Made by a program: the position numbers and the translations under genes
The notes under the pieces: generated by a model
The model's input: only the letters and a program-made list of their open reading frames with translations
Told to the model about the DNA's origin: nothing
Database searches by the model: none
Shown: positions 1,906 to 23,910 of the stretch, piece after piece
Position numbering within the stretch: the stretch's first letter is position 1
How the letters are laid out: each line of letters opens with the position of its first letter
Source of the DNA: an uncultured Eubacteriales bacterium
GTDB lineage: Bacteria > Bacillota > Clostridia > TANB77 > RGIG9151
DNA length: 25,045 nucleotides
Assembly (NCBI GenBank): GCA_964475435.1
Contig: CAYYWT010000006.1
Location: 1-25,045 of the forward strand
Direction: 5' to 3'

Positions 1906-3537
1906 TCATTCCGTAATTGTATAATTACTGCTTGTTTGAGCCATAGAGCCGGCATAAATAGATATAGCAGTATACAACTGAGTCATCTTATCCGCATTTT
2001 TAGTAGAAAAATCATTCCAATTCTTTACTATTTTATCTTTTTGGGCATTAATTTCATCATCAGTCGCAATAGAAGTATCAAATGCATTCTCTATGTTTTT
2101 TTGTTCAAATTCAGCTTTATCTAAAATGCTCAACTTTACATCAATATTATTTGTTGACATATCATCCGACGCAATCATACTATAATTGATTTTTTTCTCA
2201 TTCTTATCTATTATCCCCTCTAATACATATTCAAAATTCCCATTATCCGAAGTCATAATTATTTTTAATTTATCTTCTTTTGAACCGTCTAAAGTTAACA
2301 CAAGCGTATTCTTATACTCTTCTAAGAAATCGCCGGTTTCATAATTAATATAATTTACATCAATTGTATGTGTCCATATATCCTTTTCAGCCATATAAAC
2401 ATTATCTACATAACTCATAAGACCATTATTATACTCATAATATCTTTCCCTACCATCATCTATCATAACAAGCTTTAACACACTACTTGTATAGTTCATA
2501 TTATAAATTTCAGCCTTTACAATATTATTCCCTTCATAATAGAGTCTAATTATCATCCCATCTTCTTCACTAAATTCAAGTTTTTTAACTTCATCATAAA
2601 TATAAGTAATAGCCTCGACAAACTCTTCGCGAGTAAACGGCACAACTTCATATCCCATTTGAATACACATATTATCATAAGCATTAGAAAACTTTAGTAA
2701 AACATCTATGGCTTTATCCTCTTTTAAAAGTTGCTCCAACGCAAAAATTATACCATTATTCATTTCTAATGAATTCATCTTAAAATCAATATAATTAACA
2801 TCAATAGATTTATTATTATAATTTAGAGTATCCTTTCCTTTAGAAAAATCTTCTTTTCCAAAAGCTTTGGTAAACGCCTTTCCTACTCTTATCATAGCTT
2901 TACTCAAATCATTTTTTTCATTATCCGAAATCTTAAAATTTTCAATAATTTCTACTTGAGAAGTAAGCTTATCAGGTCCATTATAGCCAATCTTTTCCCA
3001 TAATTCCGAAAGTTTAGTATTATCCGCTGATATATATCCATCAGTTATCTTATCTACATTAACAAAAAAATCATCATTTTTTCTCAATAAATCAGCCAAG
3101 ATAAATTCTTCTCCATTTAGTATAATTTTAATATTTGAATCAAAATAATTATCTTTAGCCTCAGAATTTTCATAAGCTTGTAATTTTATACTGTTAAAAC
3201 CATTAAGCCACGCTAAAATTTCCTTATCTTCCGTTTCAACTTTAGCATCAACTTCAGTATTAATAGAAAGTTTATTATCCAAATTAGTATCTAAAATTCT
3301 TCCAAACACACTTTTTTGTACGCTTTCAACATATCCCGAAAGAACAGAAAACTCATTACCTATTAAGCTAAAATACTTATATTTTAACGTTGAGAACATA
3401 AATACCAATAAAACAATTATACTAAGAACTATTACTCCACCTAACGCTAAAAGTATAATCTTTAACTTACCATTCTTTTTAACTTGTTCTCCCTCCGAAA
3501 CCAAATTGTCGTTTTCATTAAACTCGTCCATTAACAT
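1906..3537 (-). CDS. Hypothetical membrane-anchored protein: short cytoplasmic N-tail, one TM helix, about 490-aa extracytoplasmic domain
   Basis: Long uninterrupted ORF. Start set at ATG 3537 (MLMDEFNEND...), directly after AGGAGG plus a 4-nt spacer. One hydrophobic helix (IILLALGGVIVLSIIVLLVFMF) follows a K-rich segment. I recognise no family motif. Confidence 0.75.
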   Translation of the reverse strand: MLMDEFNENDNLVSEGEQVKKNGKLKIILLALGGVIVLSIIVLLVFMFSTLKYKYFSLIGNEFSVLSGYVESVQKSVFGRILDTNLDNKLSINTEVDAKVETEDKEILAWLNGFNSIKLQAYENSEAKDNYFDSNIKIILNGEEFILADLLRKNDDFFVNVDKITDGYISADNTKLSELWEKIGYNGPDKLTSQVEIIENFKISDNEKNDLSKAMIRVGKAFTKAFGKEDFSKGKDTLNYNNKSIDVNYIDFKMNSLEMNNGIIFALEQLLKEDKAIDVLLKFSNAYDNMCIQMGYEVVPFTREEFVEAITYIYDEVKKLEFSEEDGMIIRLYYEGNNIVKAEIYNMNYTSSVLKLVMIDDGRERYYEYNNGLMSYVDNVYMAEKDIWTHTIDVNYINYETGDFLEEYKNTLVLTLDGSKEDKLKIIMTSDNGNFEYVLEGIIDKNEKKINYSMIASDDMSTNNIDVKLSILDKAEFEQKNIENAFDTSIATDDEINAQKDKIVKNWNDFSTKNADKMTQLYTAISIYAGSMAQTSSNYTITE

Positions 3538-3554
3538 ATTCCTCCTTTGAATTA

Positions 3555-3583
3555 TTGCTATAATTCCTTTCTTCTGATATAAT
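3555..3583 (+). promoter_or_regulatory. Sigma-A type promoter for mutS2 (TTGCTA-N17-TATAAT)
   Basis: -35 TTGCTA at 3555-3560, exact 17-nt spacer, consensus -10 TATAAT at 3578-3583, about 75 nt upstream of the mutS2 ATG in the divergent intergenic region. Confidence 0.6.
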
Positions 3584-3658
3584 TTCTGTGTACTAACATA
3601 AAATTCCTTTATATTTTTTATGAATTTTTTGTACACTTTAAAAGAAAGGAACTTAAAA

Positions 3659-6030: not shown

Positions 6031-6870
6031 ATGATAACATTTACCATTTCCAAAAATCATAATAACCAAAAAATTCTAAAAGTTATAAATTTAATATACC
6101 CTCAAATTCCTTATTCTACTCTTCAAAAACTTTTAAGGAAAAAAGATATAAAAATAAACGGTAAAAGAATATCAGAAAATATAAATGTATTCTCAGATGA
6201 TATCGTAGAAATATATTGGAAAATGCCGGATGAATCAATAAATATCGTGTTTGAAGACGGCAATTTAATCGTAGTAAATAAACCTCAAGGAATAGAAGTA
6301 TTAAACTCCAAAGAAGATAAATCCTTACTTGAACTAGTACAAAAATACCTTCATACGGAAAATGTCTACCCTTGCCATAGATTAGATAGAAATACCGGTG
6401 GACTTGTACTTTTTGCAAAAAATAAAGAAACATTAAAAATAATTGAAGAAAAAATAAAATCTAAAGAAATAAGAAAATTCTATAAATGCCGAGTACTAGG
6501 GCATCTAAAGCAAAAATCCGCTACATTAAATGCATATTTATTTAAAGACAGTAAAAAAAGTTTGGTATATATAAATTCTGCTAAAAAAGAAGGCTATATG
6601 CCAATTACCACGAAGTATACCGTTATTTCAGAAGATAAAGAAACCAGTTACTTAGAAGTTGAACTGATAACGGGACGAACTCATCAAATTCGTGCTCATC
6701 TAGCTTTTATCGGTCATCCGATAATCGGAGACGGAAAATACGGTGATTATGAAATAAATAAAAAGTACGGTAAAAAGTTTCAAGAACTTTTCGCCTATAA
6801 AATTATTTTTGATTTTAAATCAGACGCTGATTTATTAAATTATTTAAAAGAAAAGGTAATATCAATTTGA
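6031..6870 (+). CDS. RluA-family pseudouridine synthase with N-terminal S4-like domain
   Basis: Catalytic-Asp motif HRLDRNTGGLVLFAK, GRTHQIRAHLA motif, N-terminal S4-like segment. AAGGAG lies 7 nt upstream of the ATG. The gene starts 20 nt after mutS2, so it is probably co-transcribed. Confidence 0.88.
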   Translation: MITFTISKNHNNQKILKVINLIYPQIPYSTLQKLLRKKDIKINGKRISENINVFSDDIVEIYWKMPDESINIVFEDGNLIVVNKPQGIEVLNSKEDKSLLELVQKYLHTENVYPCHRLDRNTGGLVLFAKNKETLKIIEEKIKSKEIRKFYKCRVLGHLKQKSATLNAYLFKDSKKSLVYINSAKKEGYMPITTKYTVISEDKETSYLEVELITGRTHQIRAHLAFIGHPIIGDGKYGDYEINKKYGKKFQELFAYKIIFDFKSDADLLNYLKEKVISI

Positions 6871-6881
6871 TATTACCTTTT
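6851..6881. terminator. Bidirectional intrinsic terminator hairpin spanning both stop codons of the convergent genes
   Basis: Perfect 14-bp inverted repeat AAAAGGTAATATCA (6851-6864), loop att, TGATATTACCTTTT (6868-6881). A T5 run follows on the plus strand and TTTTCTTTT follows on the minus strand. The two convergent stop codons (TGA 6868-6870, TAA 6873-6875) lie inside the 3' arm. The stem is AT-rich, so its strength is uncertain. Confidence 0.55.
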
Positions 6882-9383
6882 TCTAAATATACTCTTAATA
6901 AAACTATCATCATTTCCCTGCTGTCTATGCGACATTCTCGATCCGCCTATTGGAAACACATCTTGAACAATAATCGCAACCGCCTGTTTAAACTCATCAG
7001 AGAATCCTGAGAAATTCATTTTACGCGAACACAAATTTTCCATATATCTTAAATAATTTTGCTCGTCAAACGGTACAATAAACCTTCTCATATTCTTTGG
7101 AAGCAGTTCTTCAAAAACAGACACTTCCGGATTTACATAGAATGTTAGCATCTCAATTAACTTAGTAGCACTAATAGACATTTTCATATGTTTATTTACT
7201 ATAACAGCAACTTTGGTTAAATCAATTTCGTTGCTCTTTAACTCTTTTAAGAACATCGTTATCGGTAAAACATTCAATATATCCATATCTTGTACTACAT
7301 ATATCGTTTGAACATATCTAAATACTTCTTGAGATGTAACAAAGTCACAATCAATTAAAACAACCGAATTTTCACGTTTTGCAGTCTCTATAACCTTATA
7401 TACATCAAACTTAGGCACTCTATCAGTTCTAGGAATTCCGGTATATACGCTAATATTTCCCGCTTTTAACGGACGATTCTGACCAATTACAAGGTTACTT
7501 AAACTATTTCCGGCAATGTCTCTTTCTTCACCGTCATCTCCGGTAAATATTGTATAAGTATCTTTATTTTTCGTTAAATCAAGGATTGCAACTTTTACTC
7601 CTTTATTTGCAAGAGCAGTCGCAACAGCAGTAATCAAAAATGTCGAGCCGGTTTTGTGTGCACCTATAAACGCTACCGCTTTCTTATAATCTCTAGGAGC
7701 TTCATAAGCTTCACGAATTACCTCTTTTTCTATAACTTGAGTTACAGTTTGAATTTGAGGTTCTACTGAAGGCATACGCGTTGGTGGTTGGTATCTCGGA
7801 GCTTGAGGAGGCTCAGGAGTAGGTATTGTAGGTCTTACAATCTTCGGTTCAACCGTTTCTACTCTTGGTTGAGTAACTCTAGGCTCAACTTTTGGCATCT
7901 CTACTTTCGGTTCTATTACCTTTGGCTCTACTACTTCCACCTTCGGCATTTCTACTTTCGGTTCTTCCACTTTTGGCTTTGCTACTTCCACCTTCGGCGT
8001 TTCTACTTTCGGTTCTTCCACTTTTGGCTCTACTACTTCCACCTTCGGCATTTCTACTTTCGGTTCTTCCACTTTTGGCTTTGCTACTTCCACCTTCGGC
8101 GTTTCTACTTTCGGTTCTTCTACTTTTGGCTTTGCCACTTCCACCTTCGGCATCTCTACTTTCGATTCTTCCACTTTTGGCTTTGCCACTTCCACCTTCG
8201 GCATCTCTACTTTTGGTTCTTCTACCTTTTCTTCCAATTTTACATGAGGAACTTCCACCTTTGGTTCTACTTTTGGTATCTCTACATTCGATTCTATCTC
8301 TTTCGGCTCCACAATTTCTACTTTTGGAACCTCAAATTTTTTCTCTACCTTCGGAACTTCCGGCTTAGTTTCTTCTATCCTCGGTTCTTCCAACTTTACT
8401 CGCGGAATTTCTACCTTTCGTTCCACTTTTGGAGCTTCTACTTTCGGTTCTACTATCTTTGGCTCCACTACTTCTACTTTTGGCATTTCAAATTTCTTTT
8501 CTTCTACCGACGGTTTTACCATAGGCTCTTCAACTTGCGGTTTCGGCTCTATTTTCGGTTTCTCACTTTTCTGCTCAACCTTAGGTTCTACTACCTTCGG
8601 TTCCGGCTTTTCTTCCTCAATCTTTTCCACTCGATTTATATAAACCGGAACTTCTACTACCTTTACCCTTTCCGGTTCATCTTTATGCTTTCTTCCGCCT
8701 TTTCCCGGGGTATAGCTCATCAAAGCTACATACTTACTGGATTTTTGCTGTAAAATATCTCTAGCTCTTTCCGGTAAAAACGGTACAATCTGTTTCAACT
8801 TGTCAAAATTATATTGCTCATATAAGCTATCAAACCCAGCAACAATTTTCTCCTCGCTAAAAATATTTCTTTCATAATATTTTATAATATTTCTAAGTTC
8901 CATCTCATCAACTGCATCAACCGCATCATACGGATTCTCGGTCAAATCTGCATCGATAAACATTTTAGCATCTTTTTTCGTTCTAGGTCTATTTATAAGC
9001 TCAGAAACTTTACCAACGGTCCTATCTTGACCGGTTAAGACATTGTAAATCCCCAAATTAAACAAAGTTTTAACAAACTTGTCATTTTGTTGCCTACGCT
9101 CAGTACATATAATAATAATATCTGCTCTTCCAGCTTCATCAGTAACTTTATCTAAATTATTAAAAAGATATTTATCTATCGCGTCTTGATTCTTAGAACC
9201 AGTTGGTTCTAACTCTTCGTGAATGACAATTCTATCAAAGTCTTTATTTTTTCGGAGCGTTTCAAGCAGTGCCCTAAAAAAGAATACTTTTGTCGCCTCA
9301 ATCTTCTCACCATAAGTAGATTTATACAGATCAATAATTTGGTTAGCACCTTTTTCAGTACCTATTGCAAATAAAACTTTCAT
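6873..9383 (-). CDS. 836-aa three-module protein of unknown function: receiver-like N-domain, long PKVE proline/lysine/glutamate repeat linker, MinD/ParA(CpaE)-like C-domain with a degenerate P-loop
   Basis: Uninterrupted 2.5-kb ORF with ATG 9383 after a G-rich SD-like tract (AGGGTGGTGAGGA). The N-terminal ~135 aa show an alternating beta-alpha pattern (KVLFAIG / RIVIHEE / DIIIICTE / YNVLTG). Residues ~255-545 are PKVE-type repeats. The C-terminal region has AVAFIGAHKTGSTF...KGVKVAILDL and VVLIDCD motifs, arranged as in SIMIBI MinD/ParA ATPases. No signal peptide or TM helix. Confidence 0.85.
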   Translation of the reverse strand: MKVLFAIGTEKGANQIIDLYKSTYGEKIEATKVFFFRALLETLRKNKDFDRIVIHEELEPTGSKNQDAIDKYLFNNLDKVTDEAGRADIIIICTERRQQNDKFVKTLFNLGIYNVLTGQDRTVGKVSELINRPRTKKDAKMFIDADLTENPYDAVDAVDEMELRNIIKYYERNIFSEEKIVAGFDSLYEQYNFDKLKQIVPFLPERARDILQQKSSKYVALMSYTPGKGGRKHKDEPERVKVVEVPVYINRVEKIEEEKPEPKVVEPKVEQKSEKPKIEPKPQVEEPMVKPSVEEKKFEMPKVEVVEPKIVEPKVEAPKVERKVEIPRVKLEEPRIEETKPEVPKVEKKFEVPKVEIVEPKEIESNVEIPKVEPKVEVPHVKLEEKVEEPKVEMPKVEVAKPKVEESKVEMPKVEVAKPKVEEPKVETPKVEVAKPKVEEPKVEMPKVEVVEPKVEEPKVETPKVEVAKPKVEEPKVEMPKVEVVEPKVIEPKVEMPKVEPRVTQPRVETVEPKIVRPTIPTPEPPQAPRYQPPTRMPSVEPQIQTVTQVIEKEVIREAYEAPRDYKKAVAFIGAHKTGSTFLITAVATALANKGVKVAILDLTKNKDTYTIFTGDDGEERDIAGNSLSNLVIGQNRPLKAGNISVYTGIPRTDRVPKFDVYKVIETAKRENSVVLIDCDFVTSQEVFRYVQTIYVVQDMDILNVLPITMFLKELKSNEIDLTKVAVIVNKHMKMSISATKLIEMLTFYVNPEVSVFEELLPKNMRRFIVPFDEQNYLRYMENLCSRKMNFSGFSDEFKQAVAIIVQDVFPIGGSRMSHRQQGNDDSFIKSIFRKR
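7886..8242 (-). repeat. In-frame 51-bp (17-aa) tandem repeat array inside the 836-aa CDS
   Basis: Units begin at 7937, 7988, 8039, 8090 and 8141, exactly 51 bp apart. Units 7937-7987 and 8039-8089 are identical, and the others differ at about 3-4 positions. Degenerate units flank the array at 7886-7936 and 8192-8242. The encoded unit is roughly EEPKVE(M/T)PKVEV(A/V)(K/E)PKV. A wider degenerate PKVE-like zone runs from about 7800 to 8620. Confidence 0.9.
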
Positions 9384-9413: not shown

Positions 9414-9800
9414 CTACGCTATTTTAGTAAAAAACCAAAATACAAAATTAACTATTTTCGCTATAACAAGGAACGTAAACGCTCCCCACATAAGTAACAT
9501 ACCTTGACGTTTCTTATATAAATTCCTTATACCTAGGATAAAATATTGTATCGACCCCCACAATATAAGGATTACACAAATGGGAAGACTTTTATCGCTT
9601 ATTTGTTCAACTATCGTATAAGCCAAACTATTTACCGTAGTCGCAACCTTTTCAGTTCCTTCTTCAATAGTTCCTACAATTTCACTAGTTTTATCATTCT
9701 CTACAGCTTCATAATCTGAAAATGAAGTTGCTAATGACAAATTACTAAAAACAATTACTAACGTAATCACAATACTAAATATTTTGGTAAATCTTTTCAA
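9414..9800 (-). CDS. Small secreted/membrane protein: signal peptide, acidic ~55-aa segment, C-terminal two-helix hairpin
   Basis: TTG start at 9800 with SD AGGGGGG 7 nt upstream. N-terminus MKRFTKIFSIVITLVIVFSNLSLA|TS looks like a cleavable signal peptide. Two hydrophobic helices (LPICVILILWGSIQYFILGI and MLLMWGAFTFLVIAKIVNFVFWFF) are joined by a basic loop, RNLYKKRQG. The gene ends 30 nt upstream of the 836-aa gene. Confidence 0.65.
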   Translation of the reverse strand: MKRFTKIFSIVITLVIVFSNLSLATSFSDYEAVENDKTSEIVGTIEEGTEKVATTVNSLAYTIVEQISDKSLPICVILILWGSIQYFILGIRNLYKKRQGMLLMWGAFTFLVIAKIVNFVFWFFTKIA

Positions 9801-9857: not shown

Positions 9858-9886
9858 ATTGTACCATAATTTTGTTAACTATTCAA
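9858..9886 (-). promoter_or_regulatory. Strong sigma-A promoter with extended -10 for the 128-aa/836-aa gene pair
   Basis: The minus strand reads TTGAAT (plus 9881-9886), a 17-nt spacer, then TGGTACAAT (TG-n extended -10; hexamer at plus 9858-9863). It lies between the atpC stop and the 128-aa gene. Confidence 0.6.
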
Positions 9887-10359: not shown

Positions 10360-11841
<1,482 letters not shown>

Positions 11842-23127: not shown

Positions 23128-23910
23128 ATGGCTACATTAAACGATTTTACCGAAATCCGCGAACTCATTTTAAAAAATTCCATCTACAATCGTATCCTAA
23201 TCGCAAGACTTTCCAATTACTCCTCTTTCACAGTAGCCTCTACTCTACTTACTTTAAGAAACGAGACCAAGGAAGAATTAAAAAAAGATGTGCATAGAAA
23301 AAGGCTTCCAACATACGCTTTATACAACATAGTAGTGAAATTAAACAATTCTAGAAATTTCTCTATCGGAGTCGAATTTCCAACACACACCATCATATGG
23401 GATTATCCAAATCTCAACCTAAAAAATTACAAGGAGTTAGCAAATTTCATTTACAATAAGTATTCAATAAACCCTGCAAAATCAGACAAAATTTTTTCGG
23501 CAATCCCTTATGATATGAAATGTTTTTTGGTAATCAACGATTACTCTTATCGTTTTTGGTATCAAGGCTTTTCTAAGAAAAAGAGAAAAGTAACAGAGGC
23601 TCAGTTTGACATTTCTAAAGTTGATGAATACTTGGGCATGTTAAAAAGACGTAATATTGAATACCGCGTTTTTAATACCATACTGCTATCTTTATTAAAA
23701 CACGGCGAGTATCATAATCAAAAATCAGGTTTCGGAATTGTAAATATCCATCCAACCTCATTTAAAAACAAAGTTTATGTTGAATTTGATTCCGAACTAG
23801 ACTTCAGAATCTATTCAAACATTTTCCCAATTTCAGTTTTTTCCCCGACTTTATGGAACACATACGACTCCGATATCGACAAATTCGTTCTTATTACAAT
23901 AGCTAAATGA
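23128..23910 (+). CDS. Hypothetical protein, 260 aa, no recognisable family
   Basis: Clean ORF with AAGGAG 7 nt upstream of the ATG, its own promoter and a terminator directly downstream. It is soluble (no TM helix or signal peptide) and rich in K/N/Y/F. It is the only plus-strand gene between 6.9 kb and the right edge. Confidence 0.7.
   Translation: MATLNDFTEIRELILKNSIYNRILIARLSNYSSFTVASTLLTLRNETKEELKKDVHRKRLPTYALYNIVVKLNNSRNFSIGVEFPTHTIIWDYPNLNLKNYKELANFIYNKYSINPAKSDKIFSAIPYDMKCFLVINDYSYRFWYQGFSKKKRKVTEAQFDISKVDEYLGMLKRRNIEYRVFNTILLSLLKHGEYHNQKSGFGIVNIHPTSFKNKVYVEFDSELDFRIYSNIFPISVFSPTLWNTYDSDIDKFVLITIAK

Follow-up and report, generated by a model that had tools for sequence, protein, structure and literature searches.

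The question raised by this locus is what a protein can be that joins a receiver-like N-terminus to an end resembling the ATPases MinD and ParA through some 320 residues dominated by proline, lysine, valine and glutamate. The gene lies at 6873..9383 on the minus strand (the strand of every feature below unless stated otherwise) of a 25,045-nucleotide stretch, here called the window, from an uncultured Eubacteriales bacterium of the GTDB lineage TANB77 (contig CAYYWT010000006.1 of assembly GCA_964475435.1). This open reading frame (ORF) of 836 amino acids (aa) plus stop encodes, in order, a pseudo-receiver, a helical bundle, a disordered linker, a MinD/ParA-like domain and a basic-aromatic tail. 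A preliminary description, drawn from the sequence alone, had recognised the receiver-like, spacer and MinD/ParA-like parts, had stated that no characterised protein with this combination was known, and had proposed structure prediction with fold searches on each globular end as well as a survey of homologues and their neighbourhoods. We carried out both. The explanation that we favour, and to which we give slightly better than an even chance, is that the protein is a TadZ/CpaE-derived, membrane-associated and probably non-hydrolysing scaffold, in which the linker acts as a flexible spacer, and that it left a pilus locus to form a two-gene module with a small membrane-protein partner.

Spatial organisation in bacterial cells depends mainly on ParA/MinD proteins, whose hallmark is a deviant Walker A motif with two lysines. 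The C-terminal MinD/ParA-fold (SIMIBI) domain of the window protein spans aa 546-815 (6939..7748). An AlphaFold2 model of aa 541-836 reached a pLDDT of 79.8 and a pTM of 0.79, with disordered termini, and a Foldseek search of the PDB with this region returned structures of the ParA/MinD class almost exclusively. The ParA-family protein 3ea0 came first (E 7e-9), followed by MinD (1hyq, 4v03, 3q9l), FlhG, FleN, BcsQ, NifH and HypB; E values for 3ea0, 1hyq, 4rz2, 4v03, 5j1j and 3q9l ran from 7e-9 to 3e-6, as expected of a SIMIBI fold. Scans of Pfam and NCBIfam with the window protein yielded sub-threshold matches throughout, the best of them to MipZ (17.4 bits against a cutoff of 20.7), CbiA (13.8 against 25.4) and TIGR03815, the model for the actinobacterial CpaE homologue Ssd (15.1 against 154.45, E 0.009). 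When ten diverse homologues were scanned as well, the P-loop or CbiA/MipZ matches again stayed below threshold, except that one homologue (L057; loci and homologous proteins are cited by L and P handles) just passed CbiA at 26.9 bits. Single-sequence and profile searches of PDB sequences gave nothing significant, and an LRR_EndoS match precomputed for two homologues was rejected as spurious, being sub-threshold and located inside the MinD-like domain. On its modelled fold the C-terminal domain is of the ParA/MinD (SIMIBI) class, yet it lacks the deviant Walker A motif and fails all curated thresholds.

The departure from the motif was examined in the family as a whole, with P-loop counts taken from 217 members and other residue columns from 60 full-length genomic homologues. 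The deviant Walker A motif of ParA/MinD (A/D) ATPases is KGGxxK[S/T], with a signature Lys and a catalytic Lys, and in some A/D ATPases the key lysines are placed elsewhere in the sequence (PMC11407121); the TadZ consensus K/RGGxGx[S/T] likewise lacks the canonical Lys (bioRxiv 10.64898/2026.07.08.737194). The window protein carries the atypical P-loop GAHKTGSTF at aa 574-582 (7638..7664), with Ser for the Walker Lys and Ala for the signature Lys. Its GAHKTGST is an instance of the family motif GxxKxGT[ST], in which the Walker-Lys position (motif position 7) is Thr in 200 members, Val, Ile, Ser or Asn in 16 and Lys in one, and motif position 4 is Lys in 209 of the 217. Comparison by hhalign with E. 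coli MinD set G574 opposite G10, A575 opposite the signature Lys11, K577 opposite G13, S580 opposite the Walker Lys16 and D602 opposite D38, the likeness being limited to 36 columns around the P-loop with a probability of 26%. BLASTP against the distant member P0280 (33% identity over 269 aa, E 7e-33) placed the same S580 opposite the Lys of a canonical GFSGAGKTS. The alignments indicate that the family has dropped both lysines of the deviant Walker A motif and has fixed a strictly conserved new variant. Further along, the Walker-B-like strand VVLIDCDF (7341..7364) has invariant D678, D680 and F681, and it is followed by an invariant QDMD motif (7281..7292).

The domain is followed by a C-terminal tail, RMSHRQQGNDDSFIKSIFRKR (6876..6938), consisting of a variable spacer and a basic-aromatic end. 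Such an end was present in most of the 60 aligned homologues, reading SFIKSIFRKR in the window protein and GFGLFRKK, KKGLFRR or KKGGFFR elsewhere, and by motif only we take these tails to resemble the membrane-targeting sequence of MinD. AlphaFold2 placed a short helix at model residues 288-292, in a tail segment with a pLDDT below 50. The membrane anchor of MinD-type proteins is a C-terminal amphipathic helix (PMC11407121), and the resemblance of motif suggests that the tail may target the membrane in the same way.

These features bear on whether the protein might be a fully active MinD/ParA-type ATPase that patterns the membrane by ATP-driven dimerisation and partner-stimulated hydrolysis. 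Such activity would agree with the fold, the conserved Walker-B-like and switch-I Asp residues, the near-invariant Lys inside the P-loop and the MinD-like tail, but both deviant Walker A lysines are absent, the Walker Lys from 216 of the 217 members, and we regard it as very unlikely. Since both P-loop lysines are missing, a MinD-type cycle of ATP hydrolysis is improbable; the near-invariance of GxxKxGT[ST] nevertheless speaks for a pocket that has kept a use.

The N-terminal domain (aa 1-135, 8979..9383) was assigned to the receiver fold. An AlphaFold2 model of aa 1-240, built from an alignment of six sequences (pLDDT 68.7), showed five beta-alpha units, (beta-alpha)5, within aa 1-130, and the Foldseek matches of this region were receiver domains, with ComE(D58E) first, the N-terminal domains of CpaE (4myr, 4n0p, 4dad, 4dn6) among the top and RcsB also present. 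Pfam Response_reg gave no match to the window protein at E up to 1. The pocket was compared residue by residue: T9-E10 follows strand 1 and the acidic D/E10 is kept in 59 of the 60 homologues; E56 (9216..9218) occupies the phospho-Asp position, where Glu is found in 59 of 60; position 94, where strand 4 ends, is Ser or Thr in 55 of 60; strand 5 is followed by L116-T117-G118, with no Lys; and R96, R97 and R121 are invariant. The domain has the receiver fold while lacking both the phospho-acceptor Asp and the Lys after strand 5, as in the atypical, non-phosphorylatable N-terminal receivers of TadZ/CpaE. This pattern of retention is that of a conserved pseudo-receiver and not a decaying one.

Predicted structure, fold search and family conservation upheld all three structural calls of the preliminary description. 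Its (beta-alpha)5 CheY-like N-terminus and its SIMIBI MinD/ParA C-terminus were each recovered by model and Foldseek; the replaced acidic pocket that it described (TE after strand 1, Glu for the phospho-Asp, no strand-5 Lys) recurs in the columns of the 60 homologues, to which the Ser/Thr at the end of strand 4, absent from that description, can be added; and its comparison with the TadZ/CpaE pseudo-receiver agrees with the rank of the CpaE domains. The third call, the P/K/V/E spacer, is treated below.

Between pseudo-receiver and linker lies a bundle of four to five helices (aa ~155-225, 8709..8921; pLDDT 71-90 over aa 160-222), which is conserved across the family with a FLP...KY motif. Local Foldseek alignments of the N-terminal 240 aa extended over the regulators RcsB, NarL and LiaR, which combine a receiver (REC) with a helix-turn-helix (HTH) domain. 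A REC plus LuxR-type HTH arrangement was not supported for the N-terminal 225 aa, with rmsd above 11 Å and without an HTH profile match; the long RcsB and NarL alignments had rmsd of 11-17 Å and TM-scores no better than those of receiver-only matches.

The linker (aa ~226-545, 7749..8708) was delimited by composition and repeat analysis. It consists to 78% of P+E+V+K (E 23%, V 21%, P 17%, K 17%), so that a biased middle of ~320 aa separates an N-terminal ~225 aa and a C-terminal ~290 aa of ordinary composition. A 51-nt (17-aa) tandem repeat runs through 7894-8230 (6.6 copies, 91% identity), and a 156-nt duplication occupies 8229-8531. The preliminary description was right about the nature of this spacer and set its length somewhat short, at ~290 aa. 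The exceptional length that it noted holds for the window protein and not for the family, in which the median over the 34 homologues with a delimitable linker is ~78 aa; such extreme length is lineage-specific, although long linkers recur in many branches. Two ORFs on the opposite (plus) strand, 7788..8753 (321 aa) and 7892..8368 (158 aa), consist of F/L/R/W/Y or L/P/S repeats and were rejected as genes, being mirror artefacts of the linker repeat.

The composition of this spacer had led the preliminary description to compare it with the Pro/Glu/Lys spacer of TonB, a resemblance that would speak for a TonB/TolA-like protein spanning the envelope, with its P/K/V/E segment running through the wall or periplasm. 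No signal peptide or hydrophobic segment was found at the N-terminus of the 836-aa protein, and no transmembrane (TM) helix anywhere in it (the maximal 19-residue Kyte-Doolittle mean, 1.52, is sited in the P-loop helix), and both flanking domains have cytoplasmic-type folds. We rejected the envelope-spanning protein on these grounds and give it almost no probability; the spacer would be cytoplasmic, as the preliminary description had in fact also proposed.

Linkers varied widely in the family, from 50 to 335 aa among relatives and up to about 900 aa in the family at large. The window protein and its relative at L004 are 91-94% identical in both globular parts and carry linkers of 327 and 179 aa, a difference of ~150 residues; since the linkers diverge while the domains stay near-identical, linker length and sequence are unconstrained and the presence of a spacer is constrained. 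P/E/V/K linkers are found in the window clade (L004, 179 aa; L008, 196 aa; L005, 321 aa; window, 327 aa), E/R/A/K repeats of helical type in L060, L068 and L001, and P/Q and TPKP repeats in L002. Linker expansion, to judge from these unrelated repeat chemistries, arose independently in the lineages. A short, periodic, (K/E)(I/V)-rich stretch just before the C-terminal domain is common even to the most distant homologues, for example (KEKIVEKPVEV)n in Thermoanaerobacterium, and the P/K/V/E repeat probably grew out of it.

A further linker type is N-rich and contains two AT-hooks (KRGRGRPRK/KK) together with many short acidic motifs, LPGFDD or LPGLFD/E; it was found in L065 (8549-10843), L066, P0199, P0181 and P0192, and suggests that the proteins of those branches bind DNA and carry a docking motif in repeated form. 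The paired AT-hooks, with the local alignments over RcsB, NarL and LiaR, raise the prospect of a nucleoid-membrane tether or chromosome anchor that holds DNA by its N-terminal module or linker and the membrane by its C-terminal end. The window protein contains neither AT-hooks nor LPGFDD-type motifs, its helical bundle is about net neutral by residue count and matches no HTH profile, and the regulator alignments are of the poor quality noted above. A nucleoid tether is accordingly hardly probable as the explanation of the window protein.

The repeats also affect what databases contain. Assembly breaks fall in the linker, as N runs in L001 (8229-10936) and L002 (8512-11062) and as contig ends in L003 and L006, which start mid-gene. 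Such breaks lead to many 'C-domain only' entries, and the gene is often called as two fragments or truncated (P0002 and P0005, for example). The true length and abundance of the family are under-reported in databases.

The preliminary description had stated that the gene sits alone among housekeeping genes. It proved instead to be the second member of a two-gene unit: immediately upstream, at 9414..9800, lies a gene for a 128-aa membrane protein, and a corresponding partner gene stood immediately upstream in all 64 loci with a recovered upstream flank, mostly at a gap of 3-80 nt. Partner proteins are ~106-206 aa long and share a layout of signal peptide, variable ectodomain, first TM segment, short basic cytoplasmic loop (GIRNLYKKRQG in the window) and second TM segment. 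This topology is VirB2/TrbC-like; no curated family matched the partner, and one partner member gave a weak match to Pfam TrbC/VirB2 (16.6 bits where the cutoff is 27.9, E 0.009). With this single match, a VirB2/TrbC pilin is at most a tentative candidate for the partner. The pair keeps together behind at least six different upstream neighbours, among them atpC, a 49-aa peptide gene, a pflA-like gene, ribH and a PBP5-like gene. Over 59 paired loci the total length of the linker protein correlated with the partner's length to its first C-terminal TM segment (signal peptide plus ectodomain) with a Spearman rho of 0.58, a value without phylogeny correction that a few independent events may underlie.

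To place the pair, we surveyed the family at several levels. An exact-sequence lookup of the window protein returned no record, and Pfam and NCBIfam held no model for the family above threshold. A profile search found at least 745 clusters at the 90% identity level (E up to 0.001), and among the 120 matches listed every source-given name was 'hypothetical protein' and no Pfam domain was on record, in keeping with the earlier statement that no characterised protein has this combination. An exhaustive HMM search of 1.84 billion representatives recovered 572 proteins at E up to 0.001 and 231 at E up to 1e-30, with lengths of up to 1434 aa and with the N-terminal domain at the start and the C-terminal domain at the end; word-indexed searches with single domains had returned few relatives and many fragments. 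A scan of one genome per species located the gene in 66 loci, one in each species-representative genome, and in 60 of the genomic loci the architecture of the 836-aa protein was kept full-length. Nearly all of the 66 loci belong to metagenome-assembled genomes of uncultured Clostridia, mostly from animal or human guts, with other taxonomic labels at L010, L011 and L049. The closest relatives of the window protein are 96% and 91% identical to it. A phage collection contained no match to the family, and a phage origin was rejected.

Distant full-length homologues indicate where the family may have come from. P0280, P0246 and P0247, which match the profile along its entire length at E 1e-58 to 1e-64, each head a Tad-like cluster (L070-L072), in which the order is a ~150-aa protein, a ~236-aa protein, the homologue, CpaB (SAF and RcpC domains; TIGR03177 E 2e-14), a MinD-like ATPase, a TadA/VirB11-like ATPase (T2SSE), a T2SSF-like membrane protein and a ~380-aa protein without a family match. 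The cluster is full in L071, carries an inserted HNH endonuclease gene in L070 and is cut by the contig end just after cpaB in L072. By hmmsearch, the ~236-aa protein that precedes the homologue in these loci contains two copies of the partner module. The MinD-like ATPase of L071 (4090-5034) is of the AAA_31 type, and at its end lies an MshE-type c-di-GMP-binding motif (NF053729, below the curated cutoff at E 3.7e-7).

A tblastn search of plasmids added the homologue WP_014759607.1 (494 aa; L073, NC_017998.1, 8359-9843), which is encoded on pMU3262, a plasmid of the cultured Thermoanaerobacterium saccharolyticum JW/SL-YS485, and which the family HMM (Z set to 1e6) matched at E 1.6e-21. This protein has a receiver-like N-terminal domain whose acceptor position is Glu, a linker of the form (KEKIVEKPVEV)n, a P-loop SPYSVGKTF that keeps the Walker Lys, and the tail KKGFSLFRR. 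Downstream of it are cpaB, an AAA ATPase gene, a T2SS/T4P/T4SS ATPase gene and further small genes, and the same plasmid region also carries FtsK/SpoIIIE-domain and relaxase-family genes. Altogether two distant Tad-associated homologues keep the Walker Lys, and a tad/cpa locus was found only around the distant branch (L070-L072 and the T. saccharolyticum plasmid). Gene context and alignment together indicate that the family is rooted in Tad-type, possibly conjugation-associated, pilus clusters, and that the chromosomal branch containing the window detached from them and lost the Walker Lys. The comparison with TadZ/CpaE is, through these distant homologues, stronger than the preliminary description could have known.

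The same clusters raise the alternative that the protein is still a pilus-assembly factor: a Tad-type (type IVc) pilus machine might be encoded at another place in the genome, and the pair might help in trans to localise it, as a TadZ-like accessory. It is consistent with the distant homologues leading Tad-like clusters and with the CpaE receiver-like domains among the best fold matches. In addition, a Tad-like cluster reported to be conserved in TANB77, an order of uncultured gut Clostridia, encodes a small TadZ-like and a small CpaE-like protein separately and nothing of the architecture of the 836-aa protein (PMC11680825). However, no Tad gene was found in the 25-kb window, as the preliminary description had said in denying a pilus locus here, nor was any recognised beside the pair in flanks of up to 10 kb at ~60 main-branch loci, and Tad-like loci already encode a MinD-like ATPase of their own. 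We therefore consider action in trans unlikely, if still a serious prospect.

A second alternative comes from the other side of the pair. Directly downstream of it, in 37 of 64 loci (for example L021:10961-12019 and L010:10951-12012) and also after P0181, is a gene for a TM protein with a GGDEF domain, and the pair might be a c-di-GMP-type signalling scaffold or effector working with this protein. FleN works with FleQ, and BcsQ with BcsE, and both FleN and BcsQ are structural neighbours of the C-terminal domain; the sub-threshold c-di-GMP-binding motif of the L071 ATPase points the same way. Against this, the GGDEF motif is intact (GGEEF) only in L009-L011 and degenerate (YSGxRF or YSGSKF) in all other loci, and the window clade has no GGDEF gene within 25 kb. 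The adjacency could also be inherited synteny, since the GGDEF gene is followed by a housekeeping block of ireB, ruvX and DUF1292 (three names read off the sequences); in the window clade the pair has been relocated behind the atp operon, without these neighbours. A signalling role of this kind seems distinctly improbable.

We return to the TadZ/CpaE-derived scaffold. From the folds, motif losses, conserved pairing, linker variability and homology to Tad-like-locus proteins we infer how it might work. The C-terminal MinD-fold domain would sit at the cytoplasmic side of the membrane, held there by its tail, by the basic cytoplasmic loop of the partner, or by both, and would either bind nucleotide in the static manner reported for TadZ or bind none. 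The pseudo-receiver and helical bundle would form the end that binds a partner or cargo and would not be phosphorylatable. The ~320-residue P/E/V/K segment would be a disordered, fast-evolving tether of tunable length, giving the N-terminal module a reach of tens of nanometres beyond the membrane. Two candidate cargoes can be named: the membrane protein with a degenerate GGDEF motif whose gene comes after the pair in most relatives, and a Tad-type pilus machine with its genes at another site.

Several observations weigh against this explanation. The domain could have regained catalysis through the near-invariant Lys at P-loop position 4 without this being visible in the sequence, and the hydrophobic moment of the tail is unremarkable, at the 79th percentile of 11-mers within the protein, a value that does not discriminate. 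The N-terminal model is of moderate confidence, and the Tad genes are missing from the surroundings of the main branch, as described above. Profile searches linked the C-terminal domain to no solved ParA/MinD protein at significance, so that the relation to TadZ rests on fold, architecture and gene context and not on sequence. Moreover, hhalign of the C-terminal profile against the MinD-like ATPase of the Tad-like locus gave a probability of 0.3%, that is, no relationship; the family is consequently not a recent duplicate of that gene.

A bolder version would make the protein a new positioning device without a hydrolysis cycle. A MinD-fold pseudo-ATPase would be locked on the membrane by its tail and the two-TM partner, and the linker, of ~50-900 residues depending on lineage, would act as an entropic spring that sets the reach of the pseudo-receiver; in some branches AT-hooks would make a direct membrane-nucleoid tether. 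The whole would have been exapted from a Tad-like, possibly conjugative, cluster to a core chromosomal function of uncultured, mostly gut Clostridia. We think this rather improbable as a complete account.

The remaining features of the window concern the borders of the gene and its surroundings. The ORF runs from an ATG, preceded by a ribosome-binding site GGTGGTGAGG, to its stop codon at 6873..6875, which is overlapped by a terminator-like 14-bp hairpin (6851..6881) that also covers the last codons of a convergent pseudouridine synthase gene. The partner gene is preceded by a sigma-70-like promoter sequence (9858..9886), TTGAAT-17-TACAAT, which has an extended -10 TG and is a consensus match only. 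The housekeeping setting given in the preliminary description was confirmed: the window encodes an rRNA/tRNA U5-methyltransferase, MutS2, an RluA-type pseudouridine synthase, the atp operon and YceD, and also a LonC-like protease, a TsaB-like protein and a formate-tetrahydrofolate ligase. Two ORFs, 1906..3636 (576 aa) and 23128..23910 (plus strand, 260 aa), had no Pfam match at E up to 1e-5, and the former is kept in the two closest related loci. The ATP synthase beta ORF (10360..11823) is 487 aa by mechanical call, with an odd hydrophobic N-terminal extension of 25 aa; the protein is 462-470 aa in close relatives, and the true start is therefore probably an internal codon.

The family would not overturn a concept. 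Its members, in 572 representative clusters and conserved in genomes of uncultured Clostridia that come mostly from animal guts, keep a MinD fold with a lysine-shifted, strictly conserved P-loop, tethered to a pseudo-receiver by a hypervariable linker, and they offer a natural test of what a MinD-fold domain is capable of without its catalytic lysines. They offer likewise a natural series of linkers in which to follow the effect of length and composition in what would be a membrane-tethered scaffold, and they document a route from a component of a pilus or mobile-element locus to a gene in a housekeeping context. The homologue on the plasmid of cultured T. saccharolyticum could permit experiments. 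In practical terms, breaks at repeat linkers leave many database entries of the family split or truncated.

Comparison with known systems places the family close to, and outside, each of them. A low-complexity, length-variable spacer of unconstrained sequence between a membrane-proximal end and a globular module is a feature shared with the C-terminal linker of FtsZ, the P/Q linker of ZipA and the PEVK segment of titin, to which the proposed tether can be compared, as analogy and not homology; the likeness to titin we take from the high P+E+V+K content. Unlike those tethers, the linker here joins a pseudo-receiver to a MinD-like domain. MinD has the fold in common with the C-terminal domain, a membrane-targeting helix that the tail resembles, and the switch-I and Walker-B-like Asp residues, whereas Lys11 and Lys16 of MinD are both replaced, an N-terminal module and linker are added, and no minC or minE lies nearby. 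Ssd, the septum site-determining CpaE homologue of actinobacteria, is likewise a CpaE-like protein outside the classical pilus role and matched the C-terminal domain weakly; it differs in taxonomy, in a score far below cutoff, and in having no long linker or paired membrane protein.

The closest likeness is to TadZ/CpaE, with which the 836-aa protein shares the architecture of an atypical N-terminal receiver followed by a MinD/ParA fold, and beside whose companions, cpaB and a tadA-like ATPase gene, its distant homologues are encoded. The motif K/RGGxGx[S/T] is not that of the family, GxxKxGT[ST], the absence of the canonical Lys being all that the two have in common, and the TIGR03815 score of the window protein is 15 bits against a cutoff of 154. 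The family further differs from TadZ/CpaE by the helical bundle and the disordered linker of 50 to more than 900 aa inserted between the domains, by the MinD-like basic-aromatic tail, by the obligate small membrane-protein partner and, in the window clade, by a setting free of Tad genes in the window and the fetched flanks. The 836-aa protein represents an undescribed family, related in plan to MinD, ParA and TadZ and a member of none of them proper.

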